Virus record (IMG/VR): IMGVR_UViG_3300025168_000038 | Coordinates: 1-64,000 of that record | Direction: 5' to 3' (one strand) | DNA: 64,000 bases | From: a virus | Part shown: positions 10,413 to 55,078 of the stretch, piece by piece | How the letters are laid out: each line of letters opens with the position of its first letter | Position numbering within the stretch: position 1 is the stretch's first letter | Translations under genes and position numbers: made by a program | The notes under the pieces: generated by a model | Database searches by the model: none | What the model was told of the DNA's origin: nothing | Seen by the model: only the letters and a program-made list of their open reading frames with translations

Positions 10413-10758
10413 GTATTTTATAATCCAACAATACTAAACCATCCTTTTGAATATTCATATCTTTATTAATAGAAATAGTCTTTTTATTTATGCCACTTTT
10501 TTTAAGTAATCCTTTTTTTTCTGCTTTAGTAATTGCATTTCTTGCAGACTGTGGACTTTTAAATATATTGTCATTAACAAGTTTAATACAAAACTTAGTT
10601 AATTCTATATTATCATCCTTAGAAAGACGCATAAGAAATTTTAAATCAGAATTACTTATAATTATTTGTTTAAAAAAACAATAAGTCATTATTTGATACA
10701 TTACACATGTATCTAAATTAACTTTTAATTTTAAATCTATTTTATTTACTAATGCCAT
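10387..10758 (-). CDS. Putative winged-helix DNA-binding protein
   Basis: SPQSARNAITKAEKKGLL. Confidence 0.5.
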   Translation of the reverse strand: MALVNKIDLKLKVNLDTCVMYQIMTYCFFKQIIISNSDLKFLMRLSKDDNIELTKFCIKLVNDNIFKSPQSARNAITKAEKKGLLKKSGINKKTISINKDMNIQKDGLVLLDYKILGNESQEA

Positions 10759-10759
10759 A

Positions 10760-11683
10760 TTATAAACTCATTATCATATCAACAAAGTCTGGATGTGGAT
10801 AACAATCCATTTTATCTTTCCTTACGTTGGTATGTGTTAACAAACCTTCTATTTTACCATAGTATGCTTCTTCTTGAAAATCAAATCCTTTTGTAACACC
10901 ATATTTTTTTATAAACTGTTTAAGTCCTAATCTAATATCTATATTATCTCTTTCACCTACAAACTTAATCCACTTTTCAGTTTCATTAATTTGTTTATCA
11001 GAATAAGAATGCCAATGCATCTTACCTCTAAACATTTCTTTTAACTCTGTTACCTGATCATCTTGACATATACTATTAACATAGGTAGCTTTAGTGATAC
11101 TATCTAAATATCCCATACTACATATTTCCAGTCCTACAGAATGTTTGTTCATAAAACCAGAACCTGTCTTTCCTAAATGATAAGCTTGATTCCCTGTATC
11201 AAATGCCTGAACCATTACACCATCATGTTCATCATTGCCATTTCTGTGATTAATGCCACCTAAAACAAATTCAGTAGCAATTCTACCTCTTTTATCTCTA
11301 CCCCACATGTCTACACAAGCATAAGGATTAGAGTTACCAGCAGTATGATGTAAAAATATATAATGATTTTTTATAGGTCCTTTTACATATTCACCTTTTG
11401 GTAAAAAATATTTATGTATAGTTTGATTAAAGTTTGTAACGTAATGTTGTTTAGATAAATCATTATCTTCATCAATCTCTTCAGATAACTTAAATGGTGT
11501 ACTAATGAGTAATGTCCATGTCTGTGATCCAACTATACCATCAGCTACTAAACCATTGCTTAGTTGAAATCTTATAACATGTTTTTCTGTTTGAGGACCA
11601 AAATGACCATCTTGAGGTATATTAAGTTTAAGTTGTAACTTCTTTACCTCTATATTTTTATCACCTAACTTAAGAAGTCTCAT
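10760..11683 (-). CDS. Endolysin: peptidoglycan-binding domain plus N-acetylmuramoyl-L-alanine amidase (Amidase_2)
   Basis: DGHFGPQT and DGIVGSQTW (PG_binding_1); IFLHHTAG, SVGLEIC and THTNVRKDKMDC zinc-amidase motifs. Confidence 0.88.
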   Translation of the reverse strand: MRLLKLGDKNIEVKKLQLKLNIPQDGHFGPQTEKHVIRFQLSNGLVADGIVGSQTWTLLISTPFKLSEEIDEDNDLSKQHYVTNFNQTIHKYFLPKGEYVKGPIKNHYIFLHHTAGNSNPYACVDMWGRDKRGRIATEFVLGGINHRNGNDEHDGVMVQAFDTGNQAYHLGKTGSGFMNKHSVGLEICSMGYLDSITKATYVNSICQDDQVTELKEMFRGKMHWHSYSDKQINETEKWIKFVGERDNIDIRLGLKQFIKKYGVTKGFDFQEEAYYGKIEGLLTHTNVRKDKMDCYPHPDFVDMIMSL

Positions 11684-12350: not shown

Positions 12351-12593
12351 TTATCTATTTTTACCTTTGTGTAAACCATGACTAGCATGTTGTTTACCTT
12401 TTTTTGTAGCAGCTCTTTTCTTAGCGTTTGCTGCAGCTAATTTCTTTTTACCTTTCTTAGTACTCTTCAACTTAGAAATAGTCTTAGACGGAGCATATAC
12501 TTCACCAGTGTCAGAAGATTTCTTTCCGCTTGCAGTTCTCCATTTCTGTTTGGTCCATCTAGTAAGACTTTTTTGTTGTTTAGTCTTTGCCAT
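12351..12593 (-). CDS. Small basic protein (resembles the C-terminal half of DUF5872-type proteins)
   Basis: QKSLTRWTKQKWRT...GEVYAP...KKRAATKKGKQ. Confidence 0.6.
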   Translation of the reverse strand: MAKTKQQKSLTRWTKQKWRTASGKKSSDTGEVYAPSKTISKLKSTKKGKKKLAAANAKKRAATKKGKQHASHGLHKGKNR

Positions 12594-12690
12594 TATTGCA
12601 TATTATATCTTTATTTTGTGAGCAACACTCTTTTGGTGCTGCACATGCTGCTAATGTAAATAACAGAAATATTATTATTTTTTTACTCAT
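12580..12690 (-). CDS. Small Cys-rich lipoprotein, 36 aa (not in ORF track)
   Basis: MSKKIIIFLLFTLAACAAPKECCSQNKDIICNNGKD; lipobox LAA-C; overlaps both neighbours. Confidence 0.6.
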   Translation of the reverse strand: MSKKIIIFLLFTLAACAAPKECCSQNKDIICNNGKD

Positions 12691-14389: not shown

Positions 14390-15010
14390 ATGAAAAAACT
14401 ATTAATAATCTTATTCATGCCATTAATATCTATGGCACAACAACAAACATATGTACCAGATGATAACTTTGAGGCTGCCTTAGAGTATCTTGGTATAGGT
14501 AACGGAATACCAAATGATGACTTTGTCACTACATCTAACATAAGTGACATAACAAATCTATTAATATATAGTCAAGGTATAGCTGACCTAACAGGCATAG
14601 AAGACTTCCTTAGTTTAAGAGGCCTGAGTGTTCAGGATAACCAATTAACAAGTATAGATCTCAGTAATAATATTGCTTTAAAGATTTTAGATATTAATGA
14701 TAACCAGCTTACACAACTTGATCTAAGCAATAATCCTTTGATAGAAGTACTTCATGCATTCAACAATCCAGGCTTGGAATGTATAAATGTGTATGATATA
14801 ACACAAGCAAATACTTGGTATCCTGCTGTTCTTGATAACAATCAATACTTCAGTGAATCATGCATGTTAACAGACGTAGCTGAAACATACCAGTATAGAA
14901 GACTCGTAAAGATAATAGATCTATGGGGTAATGATGTAGTCAAATATAATCAGGCTGTCTTCTTTATCTATGATGATGGAAGCGTAGAAAGAAAAGTAAT
15001 AATCCAATAA
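14390..15010 (+). CDS. Secreted leucine-rich-repeat protein of flavobacterial type
   Basis: Signal peptide MKKLLIILFMPLISMAQ; TYVPDDNFE cap; NQLTxLDLSNN repeats; C-terminus LVKIIDLWG...FIYDDGSVERKVI. Confidence 0.8.
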   Translation: MKKLLIILFMPLISMAQQQTYVPDDNFEAALEYLGIGNGIPNDDFVTTSNISDITNLLIYSQGIADLTGIEDFLSLRGLSVQDNQLTSIDLSNNIALKILDINDNQLTQLDLSNNPLIEVLHAFNNPGLECINVYDITQANTWYPAVLDNNQYFSESCMLTDVAETYQYRRLVKIIDLWGNDVVKYNQAVFFIYDDGSVERKVIIQ

Positions 15011-47448: not shown

Positions 47449-47850
47449 TTATTTGTTATTGTTTTTTACTTTTTCTAATGAACGTCCTCCAAAGTATGCA
47501 CCTATTACTGTAATTAAAACTAATTGTAATAAATCCACCCAAGAAGCTTTGACATCAAATGAAATAAAACCTGCATCAACAAATACTAATAGTACTGTTG
47601 ATACAACTAAAAATATTAATGTCATTGGTCTTACGTTCTTACTTAACCAACTATCTGAATTCATATCTGAACTCCATCTTGTTGAAATTTCTTTCTCCAT
47701 ATCTACTTCATGCTTGGAGATTAACTCTTTTATCTTTAACTCAGCAGCAAGCTTTTCATCAGCTGAAGTATGTAGCTCGTCTATAACTCCACCAATACCT
47801 TTAACTAATTCTTTAGCTCCTCCTGAAAATATTTTACTTAGTATACTCAT
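47449..47850 (-). CDS. Holin (3TM GTA-holin-like)
   Basis: RWSSDMNSDSWLSKNVRP, two transmembrane helices and YFGGRSLEK. Confidence 0.85.
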   Translation of the reverse strand: MSILSKIFSGGAKELVKGIGGVIDELHTSADEKLAAELKIKELISKHEVDMEKEISTRWSSDMNSDSWLSKNVRPMTLIFLVVSTVLLVFVDAGFISFDVKASWVDLLQLVLITVIGAYFGGRSLEKVKNNNK

Positions 47851-50251: not shown

Positions 50252-51229
50252 ATGAAAGACATCTTTAAACCCAGACTAAATATACTACCCTATCAATATC
50301 CACAATTATTAGAATACAAAGATGCAATAAGACATTCATATTGGATAGATACAGAATTTAATTTCACAGAAGACATACAAGACTTTAAAATCACTATAAC
50401 ACCTAAAGAAAAAGATGTTATTAAAAAAACAATGTTGGCCATTGCTCAGATAGAAGTTAATGTAAAAACTTTTTGGGGAGACTTATATAAGCGTATGCCT
50501 ATTACAGAAATAGGAGATGTAGGTTTTACTTTTGCAGAATCTGAAGTAAGACATAAAGATGCCTATGCTAGACTGTTGAGGATCTTAGGTTTAGAAAAAG
50601 AATTTGAAACTGTTGTTGAGGTACCAGCTATTAAAGGTAGAATTAAATACTTAAAAAAATATTTAGATGGTACAAGAAGTAGTGATGATAAAATGTATAC
50701 TAAGTCTGTCCTTCTATTCTCTTTGTTTATAGAGCATGTTAGTTTGTTTAGTCAGTTCTTAATCATGATGTCTTTTAACAAAGAGAAAAACCTTTTTAAA
50801 GGAATCTCTAACGTTGTTGAAGCCACCAGTAAAGAAGAAGAAATACATGGAAACTTTGGTGCAGAATTAATAAACATAATAAAAAAAGAAAACCCACATT
50901 GGTTTAACTCACAGTTCAGGCAGTTAATTTATTCTGCTTGTCACAAGGCTTATGAAGCAGAATGTAAAATATTAGACTGGATATTTGAAAAAGGTGAACT
51001 ATCTTTTCTTCCAAAAGAAACAATTGAAAACTTTATAAAGAATAGATTCAACAACTCACTACAAAAAATAGGAATGAAAACTATATTTGAAGTAGATGAA
51101 AACAAATTAAAACAAGTAGAATGGTTTGATATAGAGATAACAGCTACTAAAGAAGGAGATTTCTTCTATAAAAAAAGTGTAGACTACAATAAAAAAAGTA
51201 AAAGCATAACTGAAGATGATCTCTTCTAA
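50252..51229 (+). CDS. nrdB: Ribonucleotide reductase beta subunit (class Id/NrdBi-type signature)
   Basis: AQIEVNVK, ESEVRHKDAY, FIEHVSLFSQF, EEEIH and DFF. Confidence 0.93.
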   Translation: MKDIFKPRLNILPYQYPQLLEYKDAIRHSYWIDTEFNFTEDIQDFKITITPKEKDVIKKTMLAIAQIEVNVKTFWGDLYKRMPITEIGDVGFTFAESEVRHKDAYARLLRILGLEKEFETVVEVPAIKGRIKYLKKYLDGTRSSDDKMYTKSVLLFSLFIEHVSLFSQFLIMMSFNKEKNLFKGISNVVEATSKEEEIHGNFGAELINIIKKENPHWFNSQFRQLIYSACHKAYEAECKILDWIFEKGELSFLPKETIENFIKNRFNNSLQKIGMKTIFEVDENKLKQVEWFDIEITATKEGDFFYKKSVDYNKKSKSITEDDLF

Positions 51230-52865
51230 AAAAGCAAACATGGAATACAAAAAATATTACTGGCTTAATCAAGATAGCAGAACGTTTCTGTCTAGAGGTT
51301 ATATAACTGAAACACCAGAACAAAGAATAAAAGACATTGCTATTAAGGCAGAAAAATATTTAAACATCAAAGGCTTTGCTGAAAAGTTTGAAGACTATAT
51401 GGCACGTGGTTTTTACTCTTTATCTACTCCTGTATGGATTAACTTTGGTAAACAAAAAGGTTTGCCTATTAGTTGTTATGGTTCTAATATAGATGATAAC
51501 TTAGATAGTATACTAAACGCAGGCCGTGAAATAGGTATGATGTCTAAGTATGGCGGAGGGACAAGTGCTTTCTTAGGAAACATTAGACCAAGAGGTAGTG
51601 AGATATCTACAGGCGGTCATGCTGATGGTCCTATTCACTATGCTAGGATGTATGATACAGTAGTTGATGTATGTAAACAATCAGAAGCTAGACGTGGTGC
51701 ATGTGCAGTATATTTACCTGTAGAGCATCCAGATATTGCTGAGTTCCTAGACATAGGTACTGAAGGTAACCCTATACAAAACTTACAGTATGGTATTACT
51801 GTTACTGATGAATGGATGAAAGAAATGAAAGAAGGAGACAGAAAAAAACGTAAAGTTTGGGCTAAGATTATACAGCGTAGATCTGAGTTTGGATATCCTT
51901 ATATAATGTTTAAAGATAATAGTAATAATAATTCTCCATATAAAGAAATAGGACTTGAAATTACAGCATCAAATCTATGTTCAGAGATACAGCTGCCAAC
52001 AGATAGTTATAATTCTTTTGTGTGTTGTTTAGGATCTATAAATCTATTACACTGGGATGAGATCAAAGAGACTGATGCAGTACAAACTTATGTATACTTT
52101 TTAAATGCTGTTATGGATGAGTTCATTATCAAGTCAGAAACAATGCCCGGAATGAAAAGAGCATATAACTTTGCAGAAAAACACAGAGCAATTGGCTTAG
52201 GTGTATTAGGATACCATTCTTTATTTCAATCAAAGCTTATAGAGTTTGAATCACTAGAAGCTAAACAACTTAACTCAGAGATATTTAGAACAATAAAAGA
52301 TAGAAGTGAAATAGCCTCAAGAAAACTAAACTCTGAATATGGATATAGGTGTTTAAGAGAAGGTTATGCTAACACTACACTTATGGCTATTGCTCCTACT
52401 AAATCTAGCTCCTTTATACATGGTGCAGTCTCTATGGGTATAGAACCTATTAAGTCTAACTACTTTATTAAGGATCTTGCTAAGTCTAAAACAGTTTATA
52501 AAAATCCTTTTTTAGAGTGTGAGTTAGAAAAACATGGTATTAATAATGATAAGACATGGAAATCTATACTTAAAAAAGACGGAAGTGTACAACACTTAGA
52601 CTTTCCTACTAAGGCTGTGTTTAAATCATTTGTAGAGATAACACCAAAGGAACTTGTACTACAAGCAGCACAAAGACAAAAGTATATTGATCAATCACAA
52701 TCACTTAACTTAATGATAGACCCTTCTGTATCAGCTAAACAAATTAATCAGTTGTATTTGTATGCACATGAGGAAGGAGTAAAAACCTTATACTATCAGT
52801 TTAGTAAGAGTTCTGCACAGGACTTTGCAAGAAACATTTTAGAGTGTGGTAGCTGTGAGGGTTAG
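51216..52865 (+). CDS. nrdA: Ribonucleotide reductase alpha subunit without an ATP cone
   Basis: ISCY, GGGTS, SNLCSEI, CCLGS, AIAPTKSSS, KTLYY and C-terminal CGSCEG. Confidence 0.95.
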   Translation: MISSKKANMEYKKYYWLNQDSRTFLSRGYITETPEQRIKDIAIKAEKYLNIKGFAEKFEDYMARGFYSLSTPVWINFGKQKGLPISCYGSNIDDNLDSILNAGREIGMMSKYGGGTSAFLGNIRPRGSEISTGGHADGPIHYARMYDTVVDVCKQSEARRGACAVYLPVEHPDIAEFLDIGTEGNPIQNLQYGITVTDEWMKEMKEGDRKKRKVWAKIIQRRSEFGYPYIMFKDNSNNNSPYKEIGLEITASNLCSEIQLPTDSYNSFVCCLGSINLLHWDEIKETDAVQTYVYFLNAVMDEFIIKSETMPGMKRAYNFAEKHRAIGLGVLGYHSLFQSKLIEFESLEAKQLNSEIFRTIKDRSEIASRKLNSEYGYRCLREGYANTTLMAIAPTKSSSFIHGAVSMGIEPIKSNYFIKDLAKSKTVYKNPFLECELEKHGINNDKTWKSILKKDGSVQHLDFPTKAVFKSFVEITPKELVLQAAQRQKYIDQSQSLNLMIDPSVSAKQINQLYLYAHEEGVKTLYYQFSKSSAQDFARNILECGSCEG

Positions 52866-52969
52866 TCTTTAATAAAAACTACAATATCACAACCATGACA
52901 AAAGTAATATTTGTCATCACCTGCACCAGAATAATAAGTCATTGCTGAATTGCATTTTTTACATCTCAT
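52862..52969 (-). CDS. 35-aa Zn-ribbon peptide (not in ORF track)
   Basis: MRCKKCNSAMTYYSGAGDDKYYFCHGCDIVVFIKD. Confidence 0.55.
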   Translation of the reverse strand: MRCKKCNSAMTYYSGAGDDKYYFCHGCDIVVFIKD

Positions 52970-53058
52970 GTTTATTTTTGTTTTAAGTCATCTATTAATA
53001 GTTGACAAACTGTAAAAATAATAAATATATAAAATACTAAAAGTGTATACTTTTCCAC

Positions 53059-53478
53059 TTAGTAACTTGCTTCACGCCTAACTACTTCTATAGCTCTGAC
53101 CATTTTGTTATAGTCTACAGGGCATAATAGATCAAGCTTAGCTCTTGCTGTAAATTTAATGTATGCATCACCCTTTAAATATAATAGTAGGGTTGGTGCC
53201 ATTCTAATTCTAAGTTCTTTTTTTAATTTTGGTGATGTTGCAATATCACATCTATAATATGTGACTCCTTCAAGTTTGTTAATTTTTTCCCAGTCTTGAA
53301 ACGCATTATCTTTATTAAACTCTGCCCAGAATTCTACTACAATTACATCATCTTCTTCATTTTCATCAAAAGCTGATCCTGCTGTAACTTTTTCTTCAAA
53401 GTTTTTATCTGTTATCCATTCCTGAGACAGTACAGTTGTTGTTGTTAAAAGCAATAATACTGTAAGGAGATACTTCAT
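53059..53478 (-). CDS. Exported thioredoxin-fold protein lacking CxxC
   Basis: Signal peptide; ITDKNFEEKV, VVEFWAEFN in place of WCxxC, and IRMAPTLLLY (cis-Pro). Confidence 0.75.
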   Translation of the reverse strand: MKYLLTVLLLLTTTTVLSQEWITDKNFEEKVTAGSAFDENEEDDVIVVEFWAEFNKDNAFQDWEKINKLEGVTYYRCDIATSPKLKKELRIRMAPTLLLYLKGDAYIKFTARAKLDLLCPVDYNKMVRAIEVVRREASY

Positions 53479-53479
53479 T

Positions 53480-53770
53480 TTAATTCTTTTTAGTTAACTC
53501 GTAGATTCTCTCTTCCATTTTGTCAAACTTTTCTAATAAAGCTTCTACATCTTCTTGAGTATCCATAATGGTTTGTCTAATAAGCTCATCTTTTAAATCA
53601 TACTCTACTCTTTCTATTGGAGGTTTTGGATTCTCCATTGCCGTAGCTATGTCTGCTTTTAATGTAAACCACATTGTAGAAAGTGAGATTGTAAAGCCCA
53701 CAACCATACCAATTGTTTTTAAATCTAAAGTTATTTTTGTTTTTTCTCCTATTTCTGGTACTCCTGCCAT
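53480..53770 (-). CDS. Single-pass membrane protein with a C-terminal coiled coil
   Basis: TIGMVVGFTISLSTMWFTL followed by a heptad-like helix. Confidence 0.7.
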   Translation of the reverse strand: MAGVPEIGEKTKITLDLKTIGMVVGFTISLSTMWFTLKADIATAMENPKPPIERVEYDLKDELIRQTIMDTQEDVEALLEKFDKMEERIYELTKKN

Positions 53771-53782
53771 TGTTTTATTTTT

Positions 53783-54985
53783 TTACTTGAATGTATAATT
53801 TAATCCTAATGTTGTTTGAAACAGCTCACTGTCCCACATCTTAGAGTATTCTCCTTCCATAAATAACCCTATATTTTTATTTATCTTCCAGCCTAAGTTA
53901 GCACCAAAAGAATAGTCTGCCCATTGTTCTGGGTCATTATCCTCTATCAATCCTCCCTTACCCCAATTATTTCTGTTTAAATAAGAAACAACCTCATCAC
54001 CTTTTAAGTAGTTATGGTAAGGTAATATATAGTTAGCATATGCATGCAACCAAAAGTTTCTTTTATAATGATAAAAGTCCATCCCTACTATTGGTGCTAT
54101 CTCACCAAATGCAGGCACCTCTTCTAACATTTCTCTATTATAACGGTTCATTAAATCTGTAAATACAGTTTCTCTAAAATCAATATCAGAATAAGCTACA
54201 ATAGTTCCATCTTGATCTCTCCATATCCAGTCTTGCATTTGTTGACCTGTTTCAGCATCTGTGTATGTAGTAAGATGATCAGTATAACCATATTCAAACC
54301 CTAATGTATACCAATAGTTAACTGGATATTCTTGACCGTTAATTATTTGTGTTTCATTTAACCAGATTTCAATAGGGTTATAACCATATGCACGGCTATG
54401 AGTTCTATAAATTGCACCTGCAGAGATACTAAACTTTTCTCCTAAAGGCAACCTTAATCTTGCTTCTGCTGATTCATAGGCTAGATTTATCTTTCCTACC
54501 TCTCTTGACTCAACTTTAAAGATGTGATGGTCTCCTGTATGCTTTATGAAGAATCTGTGATTTCTAAACATCTCACCTCTCCAACGTTCTTTCTCCCAAT
54601 GTAATTGATATTCTAAGCCTTTTAATGCAGAACTTGGAGCACTAAACGCTAACTGTTCTTCTGTACCATCATAAAAGTTTCTTGGTTTTCTCTCGTAACT
54701 AAACCTTGCTAGCTTTCTAATACCAAAACCAATTCTATAATCATATGGATAGTCAGGTGTATTGTCTACTACAACAGGTATATCATACAGACCATTGCCA
54801 TCTCCTGTTCTTACAAAATAGGTTGACACATCTTCTTCTATAGAGTTGTTTATATCAACAGCTCCGTATACAGTACCATATTTAATAAAATCTTTATATA
54901 GGGATTTAAAAAATGGTGAACCATCTTGAGCAGAAGCACCATTCATAACCAATATACACACTAATAAACTTACATATCTTTTCAT
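53783..54985 (-). CDS. Putative outer-membrane beta-barrel protein
   Basis: Signal peptide ending ASA-Q; alternating aromatic strands; C-terminus QTTLGLNYTFK. Confidence 0.7.
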   Translation of the reverse strand: MKRYVSLLVCILVMNGASAQDGSPFFKSLYKDFIKYGTVYGAVDINNSIEEDVSTYFVRTGDGNGLYDIPVVVDNTPDYPYDYRIGFGIRKLARFSYERKPRNFYDGTEEQLAFSAPSSALKGLEYQLHWEKERWRGEMFRNHRFFIKHTGDHHIFKVESREVGKINLAYESAEARLRLPLGEKFSISAGAIYRTHSRAYGYNPIEIWLNETQIINGQEYPVNYWYTLGFEYGYTDHLTTYTDAETGQQMQDWIWRDQDGTIVAYSDIDFRETVFTDLMNRYNREMLEEVPAFGEIAPIVGMDFYHYKRNFWLHAYANYILPYHNYLKGDEVVSYLNRNNWGKGGLIEDNDPEQWADYSFGANLGWKINKNIGLFMEGEYSKMWDSELFQTTLGLNYTFK

Positions 54986-55023
54986 ATTGTAGTTTTGTTA
55001 TGTTAATACTATTGGTTTATATA

Positions 55024-55040
55024 ATAATATAAGAACTTTT
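55024..55040 (-). promoter_or_regulatory. Candidate late promoter (TATATTAT)
   Basis: Upstream of the beta-barrel cassette. Confidence 0.45.
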
Positions 55041-55078
55041 TATGAATCTAAGAAGAACTTAACCTGAAAATTTGGCAT

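Follow-up and report, generated by a model that had tools for sequence, protein, structure and literature searches.

Introduction

Two-component spanins, such as lambda Rz/Rz1, T7 gp18.5/18.7 and T4 PseT.3/PseT.2, are encoded in lysis clusters by tightly packed genes that are mosaic among related phages, join an inner-membrane coiled coil with an N-terminal transmembrane (TM) segment to a partner in the outer membrane, and are presumed to act after the endolysin. The same traits recur in a trio of genes, here called bb400, cc96 and trx139, that lies within a 64,000-nucleotide stretch of viral DNA (the window), the first 64 kb of the 108,143-bp IMG/VR record IMGVR_UViG_3300025168_000038 (estimated 94% complete, GC content ~31%). 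The trio is predicted to encode an outer-membrane β-barrel, a bitopic inner-membrane protein and an exported thioredoxin fold, and we read it, with a probability of roughly 0.45, as an envelope-spanning module of the lysis system, most likely serving the outer-membrane step.

The comparison with spanins holds in layout and breaks down in composition. The outer-membrane partner of a spanin is a small lipoprotein, whereas that of the trio is predicted to be a 400-aa β-barrel with a signal peptidase I signal; unlike spanins, the trio has a third, obligatory periplasmic thioredoxin-fold protein, and it lacks conserved cysteines for the disulfide links that spanins use. In addition, cc96 reaches into the periplasm with far fewer residues than Rz. 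Because a lipoprotein partner and any sequence match to spanin families are missing, the trio is not a spanin by membership; at slightly less than even odds, it acts like one through its inner-membrane coiled coil and outer-membrane partner. Two further alternatives for the last step of lysis, the phiKT gp28 disruptin and mycobacteriophage LysB, are described from spanin-lacking phages (bioRxiv 10.1101/515445; PMC5707550). Disruptin is a single cationic peptide and LysB an esterase, whereas the trio is a multi-compartment protein set.

The individual components also have described counterparts. Escherichia coli TrxA, in T7 DNA polymerase and, alongside pI and the secretin pIV, in the assembly of filamentous phages, is likewise a thioredoxin fold used as a non-redox binding subunit, and its partners during f1 assembly are a protein of the inner membrane and a channel of the outer membrane. 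In these cases the protein is host-encoded, cytoplasmic and cysteine-bearing, whereas trx139 is phage-encoded, exported and cysteine-free and belongs to a tailed phage. Similarly, lambda Lom (an 8-strand Ail/Lom barrel) and the PA-2 Lc and NmpC porins are, like bb400, phage-encoded β-barrels for the host outer membrane; those proteins are homologues of host proteins, reside on temperate phages and act alone, whereas bb400 has no sequence relation to them and no cellular homologues, and always occurs with two partner genes. How Bacteroidota phages, including the abundant crAss-like phages, exit through the outer membrane is poorly understood, and classical spanins are often unrecognisable in them; the trio is present in thousands of ocean phage sequences, in lysis-gene positions, and has no described counterpart.

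Architecture of the three-gene module

The trio shares its strand with a 1929-aa cargo-like gene and lies directly 3' of it, in the following order:

54986-55078, minus strand: gap between the cargo gene and bb400, 93 nt, with two conserved motifs.
53783-54985, minus strand: bb400, 400 aa, exported, predicted outer-membrane β-barrel.
53480-53770, minus strand: cc96, 96 aa, bitopic inner-membrane protein.
53059-53478, minus strand: trx139, 139 aa, exported thioredoxin fold without catalytic cysteines.

An earlier note on this DNA, made from the letters alone, had described three tightly spaced genes for a 400-aa signal-peptide protein ending in a strand like those of substrates of the β-barrel assembly machinery (a BAM-like strand), a 96-aa single-TM coiled coil and a redox-dead exported thioredoxin, and this description stands in each part. 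The minus-strand open reading frames (ORFs) are separated by 12 and 1 nt; bb400 has the signal peptide and the terminal LGLNYTFK, and both its model and its fold matches predict a barrel; the 96-aa protein has one TM segment, its coiled-coil or helical part being read from the sequence; and trx139 combines a signal peptide and a fold above the Pfam cut-off with WAEFN instead of WCxxC. The candidate promoter that the note gave the genes gained no support from a scan of the 93-nt gap, which reveals no sigma-70-like site and no terminator. The gap does hold the motifs CAAATTTTCAG (55064-55074) and TATATTATTATATAAACCA (55013-55031). This pair is conserved across seven related loci, their upstream genes being 38-85% identical, and elsewhere in the window the motifs recur no more often than expected by chance; the gap is possibly a regulatory element.

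The N-terminus of bb400 reads as a signal peptide, with MKR, a hydrophobic core and cleavage at ASA↓Q, and the Gln at +1 is nearly invariant across the family. At the opposite end, LGLNYTFK follows a G-x-N-Y-x-F pattern that is conserved across alignment A1 and resembles a β-signal strand. The AlphaFold2 model, built from a 34-sequence alignment, has a predicted local distance difference test score (pLDDT) of 77 and long β-hairpins, and every Foldseek match at E ≤ 0.001, like each of the top 14 from VIA, is a membrane β-barrel, nearly all of them bacterial outer-membrane proteins. Specifically, VIA gives Z-scores of 10.8 for CymA, 10.3 for Tsx, 10.1 for OmpG, 9.7 for NanC and ~9 for autotransporter and Omp85 barrels, while the best Foldseek match reaches E 1e-6 but TM-scores are just 0.2-0.3. 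Since the barrel families (Tsx, OmpG/CymA, KdgM/NanC, autotransporter, OMPLA/LpxR/PagP) are tied within ~1.5 Z units and the VIA matches have a root-mean-square deviation of ~5 Å, bb400 is read as a generic barrel of no named family, with probably about 14 strands, judging from the secondary structure of the model. Residues 92-122 have a pLDDT of 40-55 and are predicted to be flexible, yet per-segment conservation places them level with the strands; this segment would face the periplasm. The predicted outer loops are moderately conserved. The protein has no family in Pfam, PHROGs or NCBIfam, and its family profile has no sequence match in the PDB. An enzymatic reading of the OMPLA/PagL type (His-x-Ser) was rejected: H196 is nearly invariant and the next Ser is not conserved.

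The inner-membrane protein cc96 consists of a short cytoplasmic N-terminus, a single hydrophobic TM segment at about residues 19-38 and an acidic segment that looks helical by sequence (family alignment A4). It is the sole ORF of the 108-kb genome in which an N-terminal TM segment is followed by a coiled coil, and it has the layout of an inner-membrane (i-) spanin (N-terminal TM plus periplasmic coiled coil, type II), an architecture that is shared without implying homology. Its only PHROGs match is phrog_1009 (unknown function, E 0.006), and neither cc96 nor bb400 matches a spanin family in PHROGs, Pfam or NCBIfam. Distant cc homologues carry an N-terminal MshE-type domain for binding cyclic di-GMP (c-di-GMP; NF053729, E 1.7e-14, 53.3 bits vs a cut-off of 38), which also matches PilB/MshE N-termini in the PDB, and the cc profile run against longer proteins recovers only PilB/GspE ATPases, through this same part. 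As the MshE-type domain is necessarily cytoplasmic, the conserved C-terminal part of the cc proteins should be periplasmic, which supports an N-in orientation with a periplasmic C-terminus for cc96. The window's own 96-aa protein lacks the sensor domain according to Pfam, NCBIfam and the family alignment. Kinship of cc96 with the coiled-coil region of the cargo protein, which had matched a 'holin' PHROG, was considered, and the two are unrelated.

The third protein, trx139, matches Pfam Thioredoxin (PF00085) with 28.1 bits (gathering cut-off 23.5, E 2.2e-6), and its family profile matches solved thioredoxins and protein disulfide isomerase domains in the PDB at E 7e-20 to 1e-7. Where WCGPC is expected the sequence reads WAEFNKDN, and CxxC occurs in none of the 23 homologues from both lineages in alignment A3. 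The cis-Pro loop is kept as RMAPT, with R92 and P95 invariant in the alignment, and all 23 homologues have a signal peptide, a retained cis-Pro loop and a C-terminal Phe or Tyr. Searches for fused forms of trx139 found none. Its signal peptide ends in a signal peptidase I site of the AxA↓Q type with a nearly invariant Gln at +1. In Bacteroidota, Gln is expected directly after the signal peptidase site (the Q-rule; PMC5837995), and its presence in both exported proteins supports real export and a Bacteroidota host. One relative, at L023:9962-10219 (loci of relatives are numbered with the prefix L), has an ordinary thioredoxin with WCGPC directly downstream of the cysteine-free exported copy, and by its sequence this phage retains a redox-active thioredoxin beside the dead one.

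Distribution and co-occurrence of the trio

A 5.8-billion-protein collection contains 2313 homologues of bb400, all unnamed and many on contigs of 100-125 kb, and the family comprises 249 representatives at 50% identity. Protein-atlas clusters of bb400 are 100% viral and unnamed, and besides these only weak outer-membrane protein families appear. Scanning 185,579 species genomes with alignment A2 returned just six contigs of metagenome-assembled genomes, all phage-like in content. By these searches the trio is restricted to phages and bb400 is without cellular homologues. The trio is very common in marine metagenomes. Among 50,697 GenBank phage records, tblastn with bb400, trx139 and a distant bb protein gave no match, nor did blastn with the region; for the distant bb representative P0211, no viral locus was found.

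Joint occurrence had been set beforehand as one observation on which the grouping could fail, and the trio stays joined. The cc gene adjoins bb400 in 32/32 IMG/VR loci and the trx gene accompanies them in 31, the remaining locus ending at the cc gene, while the upstream context varies. A second lineage, at ~30% identity and on another phage backbone, retains all three genes, and one locus has the permuted order cc-trx-bb. Cassettes of the second lineage often hold an extra lipoprotein (~190-207 aa) between the trio genes, and a ~190-aa lipoprotein accompanies the trio in some near-lineage loci too. The statement of the earlier note that no described system has this composition also survives, across Pfam, PHROGs, NCBIfam, the PDB, the 50,697 GenBank phage records and the literature, in which no description of a barrel-plus-thioredoxin lysis module was found.

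Sensory domains occur in or beside distant cassettes. At L040:8413-9632, an H-NOX gene (PF07700, E 2e-45) lies in the cassette directly before a cc gene with an MshE-type N-terminus. At several loci of the distant lineage (L046:9091-9747, L049:5286-5939, L054:9023-9667), the cassette adjoins a gene for a membrane protein with a cyclic-nucleotide-binding domain (PF00027) and a POPDC-like N-terminal part.

Lysis genes adjoining the trio in relatives

Lysis genes were mapped around 53 trio loci, and an endolysin or holin lies within 1 kb of the trio in 20/53, within 2 kb in 24/53 and within 6 kb in 34/53; most remaining loci end less than 1 kb downstream of the trio. The window itself holds two lysis-gene candidates:

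47449-47850, minus strand: holin candidate, 133 aa, phrog_3427 (E 7.6e-31) / GTA_holin_3TM-like, with a weak match to Pfam PF11351.
10760-11683, minus strand: endolysin candidate, 307 aa, Amidase_2 (PF01510, above cut-off in the scan of the own genome).

In the relatives, the neighbouring endolysins are of three unrelated families. In L037, the start of bb is overlapped by an endolysin of the Peptidase_M15_3 / phrog_894 type, which lies 60-750 nt after trx in L008, L025, L027, L028, L030 and L031. An Amidase_2 endolysin, homologous to the gene at 10760-11683 of the window, begins ~25 nt after trx in L011, L012, L020 and L024 (the L011 protein matches PG_binding_1 and Amidase_2) and has a Phage_holin_4_1-like holin after it. 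Loci of the L015 group have, behind trx, a phrog_33083-like endolysin together with a holin of this same type. Additionally, L029, L032 and L033 have a phrog_3427 holin at 0.5-1.5 kb from the trio, and so do L044, L045 and L049 in the distant lineage. A lysis-cassette component is expected to show just this pattern, one neighbour retained beside three unrelated endolysin families.

Small envelope proteins also cluster at these loci. Upstream of the trio at L011:2044-3265 lie genes for a 170-aa lipoprotein, a 94-aa TM coiled coil with a weak Rz-like PHROG match (E 5e-4) and a 96-aa two-TM protein without a family; the last, a holin candidate, directly precedes bb in the L015-L022 loci too. At L013:9893-11213, three further genes come after the trio. 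They encode the facultative lipoprotein (181 aa), another lipoprotein whose tail is rich in proline (143 aa) and a 111-aa cc96 paralogue (phrog_20984, E 2e-13), and this pairing of lipoprotein and cc protein resembles, in sequence features, a spanin pair. In the window's own phage, no canonical pair of i-spanin and outer-membrane (o-) spanin was found across the whole 108-kb genome, and no lipobox ORF occurs in any frame of the coding strand between 53000 and 55000.

The slot behind the cargo gene

Eighty loci anchored on the C-terminus of the cargo protein were compared for what lies behind this gene. A Phage_holin_4_1-like holin occupies the slot in ~30 loci, the trio in ~21, and a 110-aa cc96 paralogue together with a Phage_holin_4_1-like holin in ~9, so that the trio sits in a slot otherwise holding lysis genes. 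In most of the other loci, no lysis-type gene precedes the ribonucleotide reductase genes (where these are present), and a 4-TM protein and a 104-aa TM coiled coil are encoded instead.

Neither bb nor cc has a homologue in four relatives (107-118 kb, 94-100% complete) under a search that detected bb in 5/5 trio-bearing genomes as positive control; the trio is an accessory module. The 104-aa TM coiled-coil gene shows the reverse pattern, being present in 4/4 trio-less genomes vs 0/6 trio-bearing ones, and the same split holds for the complete pair with the 4-TM protein. Encoded as a 4-TM protein (121-135 aa) followed by a 104-107-aa TM coiled coil (L197:9618-10308, L198:9491-10217, L148:9490-10175, L138:9623-10310), this pair is, from its sequence, a candidate alternative lysis module. 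The phrog_3427 holin is not distributed along this split. As the sample is small and phylogenetically structured, the complementary distribution of the trio and the 104-aa gene is suggestive only.

Trio-less L138 also has, at 10627-11356, an overlapping gene pair that recurs in L147, L149, L151, L161, L163 and L175. It encodes a 109-aa coiled coil with an N-terminal TM segment and a 158-aa protein in which a signal peptide and a long helix are joined by 4-5 C-terminal β-strands and which ends in EYKLF. Judging from these features, the pair might be spanin-like, its outer-membrane partner anchored by β-strands; the model of the 158-aa protein, at pLDDT 43, is too poor for a fold search.

A proposed lysis module and its alternatives

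The earlier note had proposed a trans-envelope complex. Placement of the three proteins in the outer membrane, the inner membrane and the periplasm is supported by sorting signals and folds, and their union in a single complex is the part that we infer, together with its order of assembly and its effect on the outer membrane. Sorting signals, folds, strict co-occurrence, phage restriction and position in lysis clusters are what the analysis shows. Late in infection, bb400 would leave the cytoplasm through Sec and enter the outer membrane with the help of BAM, while cc96, held in the inner membrane, would extend its acidic helix into the periplasm. Having lost the redox cysteines and kept the cis-Pro groove for peptide binding, trx139 could serve as an adaptor or latch joining cc96 to the flexible segment 92-122 of bb400. 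With the peptidoglycan gone through the action of holin and endolysin, the complex would then make the outer membrane unstable or open it. The lysis reading draws on the strict linkage of the genes, the endolysin and holin neighbours in relatives, the shared slot behind the cargo gene, the complementary distribution, the lack of a canonical spanin pair in the genome and the fit of both exported proteins to the Q-rule.

Several points weigh against the lysis reading. All of its support is computational. In the window, the endolysin candidate lies 43 kb and the holin candidate 5 kb from the trio, and no cultured phage of the GenBank set bears the trio. The periplasmic part of cc96, at only ~58 residues, is short for crossing the periplasm. 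The lipoprotein and TM coiled coil upstream of the trio in L011 may, from their sequences, be a spanin-like pair, and if this pair is real the trio is not a spanin replacement in that locus. The c-di-GMP sensor fusion and the H-NOX insertion of distant relatives are at least as compatible with a signalling or regulated function as with one that is purely mechanical, and the complementary distribution among 10 related genomes may reflect just two subclades. Moreover, unrelated cargo can adjoin lysis cassettes, as lambda bor does next to Rz.

Of the three options in the earlier note, namely superinfection exclusion or receptor masking, a non-canonical spanin, and a nutrient pore with a dedicated chaperone, the endolysin and holin neighbours in relatives favour the spanin or lysis option, and the nutrient pore finds little support. 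Exclusion or masking by an envelope-remodelling cargo that rides in the late or lysis region is unlikely, though it is the alternative that survives best. The barrel would occupy or block the outer-membrane site of incoming phages, with cc96 and trx139 placing or stabilising it. Such a role suits an accessory trio that is missing from four nearly complete relatives and moves among genomic contexts as a unit, and phage outer-membrane proteins with exclusion or host-fitness roles are familiar from lambda Lom and Bor and the PA-2 Lc porin. However, in loci whose adjacent cargo proteins share just 33-41% identity the barrels share 54-92%, and this conservation, which extends moderately to the predicted outer loops, is unlike that of surface proteins in an arms race. 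The overlap or abutment of the trio with endolysin genes of three unrelated types likewise argues for late co-expression with lysis genes.

A second alternative, which we consider rather improbable, makes the trio a regulator of lysis, with cc96 acting as an antiholin-like protein or a sensor of envelope state that times holin triggering together with trx139 and the barrel, and responding in one lineage to c-di-GMP and to nitric oxide or oxygen. The single-pass N-in/C-out topology of cc96 is like that of T4 holin and antiholin proteins, cc paralogues stand directly beside holins without barrel or trx in L177 and L199, and both the MshE-type domain on distant cc proteins and the H-NOX gene within the L040 cassette accord with sensing. 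The window's cc96 has no sensor domain, however, and regulation gives no obvious need for a 400-aa outer-membrane barrel, the best-conserved member of the trio. Highly improbable is a pore for nutrients or nucleosides that has a dedicated chaperone in the periplasm, feeding precursors to the neighbouring ribonucleotide reductase: Tsx, a nucleoside channel, is among the best fold matches and class I reductase genes adjoin the trio in many loci, but the Tsx match is no better than a dozen unrelated barrels, the reductase lies on the opposite strand here and has no match in 22/53 loci, all outside the window's arrangement (L040-L054 not searched), a 96-aa bitopic protein is unable to supply inner-membrane transport, and the endolysin/holin linkage is stronger and more varied.

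If the trio is an outer-membrane disruptor, it would form a new class beside spanin, disruptin and LysB and put the thioredoxin fold to a new use, and the phage would build a BAM-dependent barrel to destroy the very membrane that holds it. A bolder and more doubtful proposal is that Bacteroidota phages possess a fourth, hitherto undescribed class of outer-membrane-breaching lysis machinery, composed of barrel, bitopic coiled coil and redox-dead thioredoxin adaptor and coupled in one lineage to c-di-GMP and H-NOX sensing; in that lineage, lysis could then be tuned to the physiological state of the host. Even if its role is exclusion or regulation, the trio is a conserved, phage-specific three-compartment system open to direct testing.

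Genomic neighbourhood in the window

The window contains genes for large terminase (phrog_6681) and portal (phrog_6547), and its record is, judged from the gene layout, an uncultured marine crAss-like phage. After the trio come opposite-strand ribonucleotide reductase genes, then a 540-aa protein and then the phrog_3427 holin candidate, which is encoded on the strand of the trio, ~5 kb beyond it. The reductase beta and alpha genes span 50252-52865 on the plus strand; this inverted block is kept in every locus of the window's arrangement, lies directly after the lysis slot in most cargo-anchored relatives and looks like an insertion into the late region.

Two micro-ORFs follow trx139 on the minus strand. 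The first (52972-53058) encodes a 28-aa hydrophobic peptide, its GTG start abutting the trx139 stop codon, and the second (52862-52969) a 35-aa zinc-ribbon-like peptide with four cysteines. Among relatives, only the closest (L001, L003, L004) have the zinc-ribbon ORF, so both are placed outside the conserved core. Farther away, a 36-aa ORF at 12580-12690 on the minus strand has a lipoprotein signal with the lipobox LAAC, and its mature part, ~20 aa long, is rich in Cys. Two small Lys-rich genes flank this ORF closely and the Amidase_2 endolysin is ~0.9 kb distant; the product is too short for a typical o-spanin. A second exported phage protein, of 206 aa, is encoded at 14390-15010 on the plus strand; it has a Bacteroidota-type signal peptide, with cleavage before QQQ, and is leucine-rich-repeat-like.

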